A model generated the notes under the pieces. The model was given only the letters and a program-made list of their open reading frames with translations. It had not been told where the DNA came from and ran no database searches. Of a stretch of DNA of 64,000 nucleotides, positions 25,493-29,484 are shown in pieces. Source of the DNA: Fimbriimonadales bacterium (lineage in GTDB: Bacteria > Armatimonadota > Fimbriimonadia > Fimbriimonadales > JABRVX01); NCBI GenBank assembly GCA_045862955.1, contig BTVI01000015.1:1-64000 (forward strand), read 5' to 3'. A program made the translations under genes and the position numbers. How positions within the stretch are numbered: position 1 is the stretch's first letter; the number at the start of each line of letters is the position of its first letter.

Positions 25493-25650
25493 CGAGCTTC
25501 ACAATCCTTGCCAACTCTTGGTGGATGCTTGCTGGCGAAGCGGCCCCGGTGGAAAGCCTACCGCTCGCGGTGGCTGCGCCCACACACCCGAGACATTCGT
25601 CTATACCAGGCTAACGATCCCTTAGCATCCGTGGTAGAATAAGGTAGCTA

Positions 25651-25716
25651 CGCGTTTTCCTGACGACGCGCAACATCCCCGTCCGTCCAACCCGGACTGC
25701 GCGCCGAGGAAGGGGT
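25651..25716 (+). ncRNA. Candidate NAD+-I (nadA-motif)-like riboswitch, single compact domain
   Basis: P1 CGCGC (25667-25671) / GCGCG (25699-25703), joiner AACAUCCCC, P1a GUCCG/CGGAC, bulged U25698; lies between an extended -10 (TGGTAGAAT, 25632-25640) and the nadA RBS. Confidence 0.6.
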
Positions 25717-25724
25717 CGCAACCC

Positions 25725-26843
25725 GTGTATCAACCGCCTCTACCAGCGGAATACGTCTCGCTATCGGAGTCCGAGACCCATGAGCGCATCCAGGCCGCAC
25801 GGCAGGCCCTCGGCAGCCGCTTGGTCATCTTGGGTCATCACTACCAGCGCGACGACATCATACGATACGCCGATTACCGGGGAGACAGCTACAAGCTGTG
25901 CCGGGACGCCGCCGCTCGACCCGAAGCGGATTACATCGTGTTCTGCGGAGTGCACTTCATGGCAGAGAGTGCCGACATTCTGTCCGCAGACCACCAGATC
26001 GTCATCTTGCCCAACCTTTCGGCAGGATGCAGCATGGCCGACATGGCCAACACCTTTCAGGTTCGGCAGGCATGGAGGCAGCTCGGCGAGGTCACGGACA
26101 TCGAGCGGGTGGTCCCGATCACGTACATGAACTCCGCCGCCGCCCTCAAGGCCTTCGTCGGTGAGCGCGGTGGCGCCGTGTGCACCAGCTCCAACGCCTC
26201 GAAGGTGCTGTCCTGGGCACTGGGGCGGGGCGACAAGGTGCTGTTCTTCCCGGATCAGCATCTCGGTCGCAACACCGCCGTGCGCATGGGTTTCGACCTG
26301 GACCGCGACATGCTGGTGTGGGATCCCGATCTGCCTTTGGGAGGCAACACGCCCGAGCGCATCCGCGAAGCCACGTTCCTGCTGTGGAAAGGTCACTGCT
26401 CCGTGCACATGCGCTTCACGCTAGAGCAGGTCCAACTCGCACGCAAGGTCCACCCCGGTATCAACGTCGTCGTGCACCCCGAGTGCACTAAGGACGTGGT
26501 GGATGCGGCCGACTGCTTCGGCTCCACCGAGTTCATCATCAAGACCGTGTCGGCAGGCGCCCCGGGCTCCAAGTGGGCTATCGGCACGGAGATCAACCTG
26601 GTCAAGCGGCTGGCAGATGAGAACCCCGACAAGCTGATCTTCTGCCTCGATCCCATCACCTGCCCCTGCAGCACCATGTACCGCATACACCCTTCGTTCC
26701 TCCTGTGGGTGCTGGAGAACCTGGCGGCCGGACGCGTCGTCAACCGCATCGAGGTCCCTCCGCAGACGAAGCGCCACGCGCTGCAAGCGCTCCAACGCAT
26801 GGTGACCATCACCGAGCAGTCAGCCGCCGCCTCCGCTATCTGA
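25725..26843 (+). CDS. nadA: Quinolinate synthase
   Basis: LGHHYQ, FCGVHFMAESA, AGCSMADM, YMNS, CTSSNA, PDQHLGRN, GHCSVH, HPEC, CPCSTM. Confidence 0.96.
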   Translation: MYQPPLPAEYVSLSESETHERIQAARQALGSRLVILGHHYQRDDIIRYADYRGDSYKLCRDAAARPEADYIVFCGVHFMAESADILSADHQIVILPNLSAGCSMADMANTFQVRQAWRQLGEVTDIERVVPITYMNSAAALKAFVGERGGAVCTSSNASKVLSWALGRGDKVLFFPDQHLGRNTAVRMGFDLDRDMLVWDPDLPLGGNTPERIREATFLLWKGHCSVHMRFTLEQVQLARKVHPGINVVVHPECTKDVVDAADCFGSTEFIIKTVSAGAPGSKWAIGTEINLVKRLADENPDKLIFCLDPITCPCSTMYRIHPSFLLWVLENLAAGRVVNRIEVPPQTKRHALQALQRMVTITEQSAAASAI

Positions 26844-26943: not shown

Positions 26944-26982
26944 AAAAAAAGGGAGGCCTGTCCCGCTGCTGCGGGACAGGCC
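26944..26982 (-). terminator. Intrinsic terminator of PEP-CTERM gene
   Basis: GGCCTGTCCCGC-AGCA-GCGGGACAGGCC hairpin followed on the minus strand by TCCCTTTTTTT. Confidence 0.8.
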
Positions 26983-28141: not shown

Positions 28142-29350
28142 TGGGTTTCCGCCCTCGCGTGAATGACGCGGTGTGCTCGATGCCCCGGCCCGCTTCCGCC
28201 GGCCCAGATTGCCACGCAGAGAACGCAACGAGAGCCGCAGAGATCGCAGCCACCGAAAGGCGGCGTGAGGACAACGGTTCCCCCTGCAGCCCTGCGGAAG
28301 GGGGAACCTTAAGGAGGGGGTCCCCCTTGAGGATCTGCGGAAGGGGGAACCTTAACGAACGGTTCCCCCTGCAGCCCTGCGGAAGGGGGAACCTTAAGGA
28401 GGGGGTCCCCCTTGAGGATCTGCGGAAGGGGGAAACTTAACGAACGGTTCCCCCTGCAGCCCTGCGGAAGGGGGAACCTTAAGGAGGGGGTCCCTTCCCC
28501 CGGCCCGCGTCCGCCGGCCCAGCACCTACCGAAGGCTTGCCTCGCCCCCAAGGACCGCGCCGGGGCAACTGCGGCGCTTGCGCCGTCCTGGCGATCCTTT
28601 GGCCGGCCGAGCAGTGCGGCTCTGGCTCTCGTGGCAAGAACCCCCTCCCCAGCTTCGCAGGCCCTCCCCCTTCCGCAAGGCCTCCAGGGGGAGGGGCTAT
28701 TCTCTATGCCCCGACCCGCCTCTCCAGATTGCCGCGCAGAGAACGCAACGAGAGCCGCAGAGATCGCAGCCACCGAAAGGCGGCGTGAGGACAACGGTTC
28801 CCCCTGCAGCCCTGCGGAAGGGGGAACCTTAAGGAGGGGTTCCCCCTGCAGCCCTGCGGAAGGGGGAACCTTAACGAACGGTTCCCCCTGCAGCCCTGCG
28901 GAAGGGGGAACCTTAAGGAGGGGGTCCCTTCCCCCGGCCCGCTTCCGCCGACCAGCAACTGCCGCCGGCATGCCTCGACCCCAAGGACCGCGCCGGGGCA
29001 ACTGCGGCGCTTGCGCCGTCCTGGCGATCCTTTGGCCGGCCGAGCAGTGCGGCTCCGGCTCTCGTGGCAAGAACCCCCTCCCCAGCTTCGCAGCCCCTCC
29101 CCCTTCCGCAGAGCCTCCAGGGGGAGGGGCTATTCTCTATGCCCGACCCGCCTCTCCAGATTGCCGCGCAGAGAACGCAACGAGAGCCGCAGAGATCGCA
29201 GTCACCGAAAGGCGGCGTGAGGACAACGGTTCCCCCTGCAGCCCTGCGGAAGGGGGAACCTTAAGGAGGGGGTCCCTTCCCCCGGCCCGCGTCCGCCGGC
29301 CCAGCACGAACCGAAGGCTTGCCTCGCCCCCAAGGACCGCGCCGGGGCCT
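28142..29350. repeat. Nested REP/BIME-like mosaic: three macro-units carrying 5, 3 and 1 palindromic hairpin modules
   Basis: Macro-units begin CCAGATTGCC at ~28204, ~28724 and ~29156; hairpin module GGTTCCCCCTGCAGCCCTGCGGAAGGGGGAACC; inverted variants at ~28661 and ~29093. Confidence 0.9.
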
Positions 29351-29484
29351 CGCCCCCCAACCCGCAGAAGTTCTATGCTCTCTCAGCGGCGCCAGACCGC
29401 GAGTCCAGCCAGAGCCCATAGCAGTCCCGTCCCGTGACTCGTTTGTTCTCCTCCAAGCGAACCGCAGAGGTACGCAAGATAGAA

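Follow-up and report, generated by a model that had tools for sequence, protein, structure and literature searches.

The leader of the quinolinate synthase gene nadA in a Fimbriimonadales bacterium raises the question of whether one half of a tandem riboswitch can stand by itself, which half this would be, and what it could do for NAD synthesis. The domains of the nadA motif (NAD+-I class, Rfam family RF03013) are described as never occurring alone, all representatives being tandem, in the accessible sections of PMC6859854, PMC9481103 and PMC10702441. The window analyzed here, that is the whole stretch of 64,000 nt from contig BTVI01000015.1, carries a stem-bulge element at 25667–25703, about 20 nt 3' of a −10-like hexamer and 21 nt 5' of nadA. 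A first-pass annotation had described this leader as a compact NAD+-I-like riboswitch, and a sequence check recovered every element it had named in its place, including CGCGU at 25651–25655, ACGCG at 25666–25670 and AGGAAGG at 25707–25713. In window coordinates, and with the aptamer numbering taken from the available part of PMC7297122, the leader is made up as follows.

25632 to 25640, plus strand: extended −10-like element TG-n-TAGAAT, read from the sequence
25651 to 25670, plus strand: anti-P1 hairpin (25651–25656 with 25665–25670), a predicted cotranscriptional intermediate at the level of the genus, kept in genome G001
25655 to 25661, plus strand: UUUUCCU, the anti-SD strand in the distal extension of P1, in MFE and centroid folds
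25667 to 25672, plus strand: 5' strand of P1 by folding, with covarying outer pairs; C25671 corresponds to C6, part of the ADP-contacting pair C6:G47 of domain 1, and A25672 to A7
25673 to 25680, plus strand: 8-nt bulge J1/1a ACAUCCCC, the ligand-pocket signature of the nadA motif, placed by the RF03013 alignment
25681 to 25697, plus strand: P1a hairpin of 5 bp with a 7-nt loop by folding, arms GUCCG (25681–25685) and CGGAC (25693–25697), covariation at 17:44, 18:43 and 19:42; P1b and the GYG internal loop are absent, as in domain 2
25698 to 25703, plus strand: 3' strand of P1 by folding, with U46 at 25698 and G47 at 25699
25707 to 25715, plus strand: purine-rich RBS AGGAAGGGG, read from the sequence and paired in the predicted full-length fold
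25725 to 26843, plus strand: nadA, quinolinate synthase of 372 aa with a GTG start, TIGR00550 above cut-off

The core folds into a 6-bp P1 (CGCGCA/UGCGCG), the 8-nt bulge and the 5-bp P1a hairpin with its 7-nt loop. U25698 had been taken for a bulged nucleotide; in the fold it pairs instead with A25672 and closes the 6-bp P1, in the register of the A7:U46 pair of the crystal structure (PMC7297122, as far as accessible), and because of this pair the bulge comprises the eight nucleotides ACAUCCCC. The element has the makeup of the nadA motif, a ACANCCCC bulge between P1 and P1a together with C6:G47 and A7:U46. Folding of the 38-nt core gives a z-score of −2.9, with 2 of 200 shuffles equally good, but for the entire 82-nt leader only −0.64. 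The joiner by itself is not rare either, as seven strict copies are found in the genome, so that proof of the element has to come from its conserved, covarying copies ahead of nadA in relatives.

At gathering threshold, Rfam returned only a tRNA over the window and missed the nadA element. The proposed comparison with the Rfam nadA model nevertheless gave a match of RF03013 to the leader (cmscan of 501 nt against 4227 families, E=0.0023), at 24.7 bits below the gathering score of 37.5 bits. The best RF03013 matches in four Armatimonadota genomes range from 17.6 to 32.6 bits, compared with 60.6 and 42.7 bits for a Terriglobales tandem. nadA is followed by a gene on the opposite strand, nadB and nadC were located on different contigs, and NrtR was not found in the host genome, which is 97.6 % complete. 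A 213-nt contig from an RNA run spans 25667–25879 with two differences; it shows neither strand nor start and may be DNA, and was therefore left out of the evidence. Two further observations concern the surroundings: a perfect 12-bp inverted repeat at 26955–26982, terminator-like on both strands, lies between nadA and the convergent gene, and a GC-rich region at 28159–29437 with repeated blocks in its ORF translations separates two similar genes with VPEP sorting-type tails.

The claim that the element lies outside Acidobacteria is borne out by RpoB, which places the host in the Armatimonadota: its main segment shares 69–70 % identity with the Chthonomonas, Fimbriimonadaceae and Fimbriimonadales genomes, three Armatimonadota, and 64–69 % with a fourth, fragmented Armatimonadota genome, as against 57–59 % over comparable segments with the Terriglobales genome. 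Leaders of relatives from the same order closely resemble those of Fimbriimonadaceae records, which makes a place in the Fimbriimonadales likely.

Compensatory changes in both P1 and P1a were found in the nadA leaders of relatives. In a MAFFT alignment of 46 copies, whose numbers are not probabilities because homolog picking demanded four core pairs and the leaders are kin, two-sided changes fill 57 cells against 23.5 after shuffling (0/500), and 87 % of the cells are paired, compared with 71 % in shuffled and 26–53 % in slid controls. Among 65 distinct copies, position 17:44 (anchored alignment) is UA in 47, CG in 16 and GC in two, 18:43 is paired in 64 and 19:42 in 60, while A7:U46 is exchanged for G:C once, in L151. 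The unpaired bulge is invariant at A8, C9, A10, C12 and C14 in the 65 distinct homologs, selected at no more than one joiner mismatch, with C13 present in 60 and C15 in 64 of them. The nadA-leader element is a genuine conserved RNA.

Its distribution was followed in 149 nadA leaders from 148 genomes of the phylum, 29 from the initial search (with L028 left out at a contig end) and 120 hand-chosen from listed matches and biased to close NadA homologs. Picked with at most one mismatch to the joiner, the motif is present in 58 of the 149: in all three leaders of f1, the single ones of f3 and f42 and all 15 of f11, in 9/11 of f5, 8/12 of f4, 8/14 of f18, 4/10 of f30 and 9/26 of f2, and in none from 25 further families. 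Three one-mismatch joiner matches (L214, L234 and L235) were discarded as chance matches in coding regions. L014, from the unpublished genome G036, contributes one row to the alignments, to the covariance model R1 built from 46 compact copies, and to the counts of 58 and 66, the latter being the set of the 58 motif leaders plus eight named Armatimonadota. At E≤0.001, R1 finds the motif in 70 of 141 genomes of the order, training members included; all 18 newly matched loci that were checked precede nadA with a single joiner each. At E<1e-4, all 17 matches across 141 genomes of the phylum lie at nadA. As for a second copy in the host genome, the next matches have E=0.007 and 0.26, the former inside long open frames. 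Control of other genes was considered and rejected, as 11 of the 13 weak non-nadA matches in the phylum were inspected and all of these fall in long open frames without nadA nearby. Across the window and the phylum matches, the motif stands upstream of nadA only, and a search up to 3 kb upstream of the 91 motif-negative loci gave no R1 match below E=0.2 that would mark a distant operon start. In f4, the motif precedes a different NadA subtype (PRK09375.1-2 as opposed to PRK09375.2-5), which argues that the motif tracks function and not a single gene lineage.

That the form is compact and single-domain, as the first-pass annotation had it, holds: no second domain is seen, each motif-bearing leader has one joiner, and the window has one R1 match near nadA with no hidden upstream domain of a tandem. 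A pattern scan of GTDB (13 of 64 parts) gave 117 loci, 28 of them with nadA downstream; eight of these are Armatimonadota, all single, and 20 are tandem, 19 from Acidobacteria and one labeled Vulcanimicrobiota. This last locus, L104, is an Acidobacteria-type tandem much like L115 and points to misbinning or transfer. Acidobacterial domain 1 begins 45–179 nt before domain 2. No −35/−10 pair was found in the window leader by sequence search, and the promoter call is accordingly based on the extended −10, from whose pattern transcription would start near 25647. Pattern calls put a −10-like hexamer in a comparable position in 49 of the 66 homologous leaders, with the putative start 7–53 nt 5' of C6 in those 49 and 24 nt in the window; at this distance, there is no room for a domain 1 here or in most relatives.

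Some observations were made alongside these promoter calls. Five leaders without the motif (L013, L017, L022, L150 and L155) have a −10-like hexamer 14–17 nt before the nadA start, and their nadA transcripts are probably leaderless. A CYAC word, mostly CCAC, occurs 8–32 nt before C6 in 31 of the 66 leaders, compared with 4/66 in a control window further upstream; it spans at least eight families, is CUAC at 25648–25651 in the window, and by eye might pair with GUGG/UGUG of the P1 5' strand.

The suggestion that the ADP-binding domain alone is at work here did not survive, since P1b and the GYG loop are absent and the element matches domain 2 of the acidobacterial tandem, the half that binds weakly or not at all. 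Domain 1 requires a 7-bp P1a, P1b and a GYG loop pairing with C13/C14 (available part of PMC7297122), and the two tertiary C:G pairs of this loop raise affinity about 35-fold (available part of PMC7708056). The window has a 5-bp hairpin and none of these three features; it is a stem-bulge without internal loop, as is domain 2. Even a lenient GYG test is passed by only 2 of the 66 Armatimonadota copies, as against 15 of 21 acidobacterial domain 1s, and 51 of the 66 are too short for P1b. In 20 of 21 tandems, R1 gives domain 2 a higher score than domain 1, and together with the GYG test this scoring ruled out a domain-1 identity. The exception is L054, whose own domain 1 is compact, so that its tandem looks like two domain-2-type units. 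In L054 and L063, both from Acidobacteria, domain 1 apparently lacks P1b and the GYG loop and carries a C13-to-U change, which is also seen in four Armatimonadota singlets. L027 (G034) is the sole singlet with AGUG at domain-1 spacing, within an imperfect stem, and may be an intermediate or due to chance.

With acidobacterial domain 2 (RF03013) the element shares C6:G47, A7:U46 closing P1, the ACANCCCC bulge, a short P1a starting with GUCC and lacking the GYG loop, and the position ahead of nadA. It differs in the missing upstream domain 1, in the phylum, and in a variable P1 where the acidobacterial P1' is fixed. The acidobacterial RBS lies in the P1' 3' strand, whereas the window RBS sits outside the pocket-proximal helix, 8–16 nt from G47 and predicted to pair in a distal extension; that of most relatives follows P1 or a second hairpin. 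With domain 1 it shares all positions of ADP and Mg2+ contact (C6, G47, A8, C9, A10, C14 and C15, according to the accessible part of PMC7297122), but not the 7-bp P1a, P1b or the GYG loop. Outside Acidobacteria, the one relative described in print is the ubiB motif of Nocardia, a domain-1 variant ahead of ubiB/aarF with nine representatives (available part of PMC6859854), which, unlike the window element, is neither located at nadA nor domain-2-like. In the literature outside subscription journals, no description of a single-domain or an Armatimonadota nadA motif was found. Some of the original 240 nadA-motif representatives (Weinberg 2017, PMC5737381, accessible in part) may be Armatimonadota singlets. 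The lone domain 2 at nadA is a variant form and not a catalogued member of the NAD+-I class, because it is not tandem and stays below the Rfam cut-off, and this cut-off, which misses these leaders, may explain their absence from the catalogue. A parallel is offered by the glycine riboswitches, a class initially known in tandem form, which in nature also include singlets accompanied by a ghost aptamer. These have another ligand and fold, and the leaders described here have no ghost helix common to all members.

What the domain does in the tandem is disputed. According to the available sections of the respective papers, it binds ADP and NAD+ with domain-1 contacts at a KD of about 3.4 mM (PMC7708056), does not bind by in-line probing (PMC6859854) or ITC (PMC10702441), and has been viewed as a millimolar second sensor (PMC7708056), as an NMN-binding half in need of a co-ligand (PMC6859854) or as a passive platform that domain 1 causes to fold (PMC10702441); the pocket does not discriminate NAD+ from ATP (PMC10702441).

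How the element might act on nadA was approached by folding. The P1 extension that buries the RBS, one of the claims under examination, stands for the window family (UUUUCCU/AGGAAGG) but is an exception among homologs. A third family member (G002) buries its SD by a different sequence, UCCUUGG/CCAAGGA, which supports the extension at family level; the RBS is paired in the distal extension in three members of the window family and lies 3' of P1 in most of the 66 leaders. The alternative pairing that would disrupt P1 likewise stands as the predicted fold of window transcripts ending at 25671–25701 (−7.4 kcal/mol, pairing probability 0.73–0.98). As a general feature of homologs it was rejected, with 0.286 against 0.295 for shuffled sequences in the 33 homologs with long enough leaders, five of which fall in the top tenth. 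Once the P1 3' strand is transcribed, P1 is predicted to displace the anti-P1 hairpin, and from transcript end 25710 on the UUUUCCU/AGGAAGG extension has a probability of at least 0.95.

In an equilibrium model with the ligand represented as a bonus of 2.5 kcal/mol, the window aptamer is 92 % folded without ligand. With ligand, access shifts by −0.14 log2 when only the SD is considered, by −0.2 over −20..+3 and by −5.6 over −25..+10, a footprint that overlaps core pairs; five further footprints yield −2.4, −0.05, −0.07, −0.2 and −3.3 log2. The same model calls OFF in 17 of 19 acidobacterial tandems; for the 66 Armatimonadota leaders the OFF/ON counts are 1/8 for the SD, 20/6 for −20..+3 and 39/2 for −25..+10. 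The proposed translational OFF switch is plausible in the window, but depends on the model and finds no clear OFF counterpart across the Armatimonadota leaders. No terminator-like site was found in the nadA leader. In 37 of the 66 leaders, 8–22 nt separate the last predicted helix from the start codon, and since leader structure in most relatives stops directly ahead of the SD, the output there is more likely steric or due to lineage-specific platforms. The SD is mostly unpaired, 1–13 nt 3' of P1, and 24–54 nt from P1 in 16/66. Taken from these models, the expression platform is regarded as lineage-specific.

Further arrangements were noticed on inspection of the leaders. A closing helix (GCUCC/GGAGC or GCC/GGC) encloses the aptamer in L005, L006, L110 and L320 as well as in L163, L304, L308 and L311; it joins the leader's 5' end with the nucleotides immediately preceding the SD and is a candidate platform in f5 and f4. 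In L015, L026, L043, L082, L085 and L161, a second hairpin lies between aptamer and SD, its loop often pyrimidine-rich and SD-complementary by eye, with a possible loop–SD contact.

What is observed comprises the fold, its conservation, its occurrence as a single copy at nadA and the lack of the domain-1 loop; as to function, we consider it reasonably probable, on the grounds of the modeled folding, that the lone domain-2 RNA is a stand-alone low-affinity NAD+ sensor that lowers nadA translation, and does so kinetically in this genus. Going by gene context and the available part of PMC7708056, the ligand would likely be NAD+, bound through its ADP moiety. During transcription, the anti-P1 hairpin would form first and P1 would then have to displace it. 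Ligand and Mg2+ at the junction of C6:G47 and the bulge would favor or speed formation of P1 and its extension over AGGAAGG, and the extended P1 would hide the nadA RBS and reduce translation. At equilibrium the buried state prevails, so that the window switch would have to be kinetic.

It is unlikely, though the best supported of the alternatives, that the nadA regulatory element serves a partner other than free NAD+, be it a protein, a co-ligand, another metabolite of the pathway such as NaAD or ADP-ribose, or ATP. Such a partner would fit the failure of domain 2 in most in vitro assays and the co-factor left open by the authors (PMC6859854 and PMC10702441, available sections); the combination of widely varying platforms with a near-invariant pocket, as expected of a binding site without simple strand-exchange output, and the model's ON calls in 8/66 leaders point the same way. 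However, the crystal contains NAD+ in domain 2 with domain-1 contacts (PMC7708056, accessible part), and the restriction of the motif to nadA is a better fit to an NAD signal than to ATP.

We find it improbable that the RNA is a constitutive 5' structure (a stabilizer or translation damper) or a relic of the tandem riboswitch without ligand response. Of the 149 leaders, 91 have lost the motif, several of these looking leaderless, and the aptamer is pre-folded in the model, but the unpaired bulge is near-invariant over nine families and both NadA subtypes next to freely covarying stems, a pattern that neither a relic nor a simple hairpin would preserve. Very improbable is a stand-in of the SD guanines for the GYG loop, i.e. 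a ligand-locked C13/C14–SD pseudoknot with domain-1-like affinity and direct SD capture, for although C13 and C14 are kept (60/65 and 65/65) without their domain-1 partners, the SD is usually unpaired 1–13 nt after P1, and the C13-to-A change of L021 accompanies a downstream GGUAG (one case, by eye), acidobacterial domain 2 also keeps the four Cs without a tertiary pair, which stacking explains (PMC7708056, available part), 4/66 leaders have an intact motif without an SD-like GG, and the SD is 24–54 nt from P1 in 16/66.

Returning to the lone domain 2 as a low-affinity NAD+ sensor, its retention under selection across dozens of genera and upstream of both NadA subtypes demonstrates function without domain 1 and contradicts the repeated printed claim that nadA domains never stand alone. 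We put forward only tentatively that domain 2 and not domain 1 may be the self-sufficient sensor of the nadA class, an aptamer of about 40 nt by which Armatimonadota would control NAD synthesis, tuned to a millimolar ligand or another partner, with the acidobacterial tandem as an elaboration and the passive-platform model wrong. Native leaders of about 50–100 nt make the ligand of domain 2, its discrimination between NAD+ and ATP and the direction of control testable without a confounding first domain.
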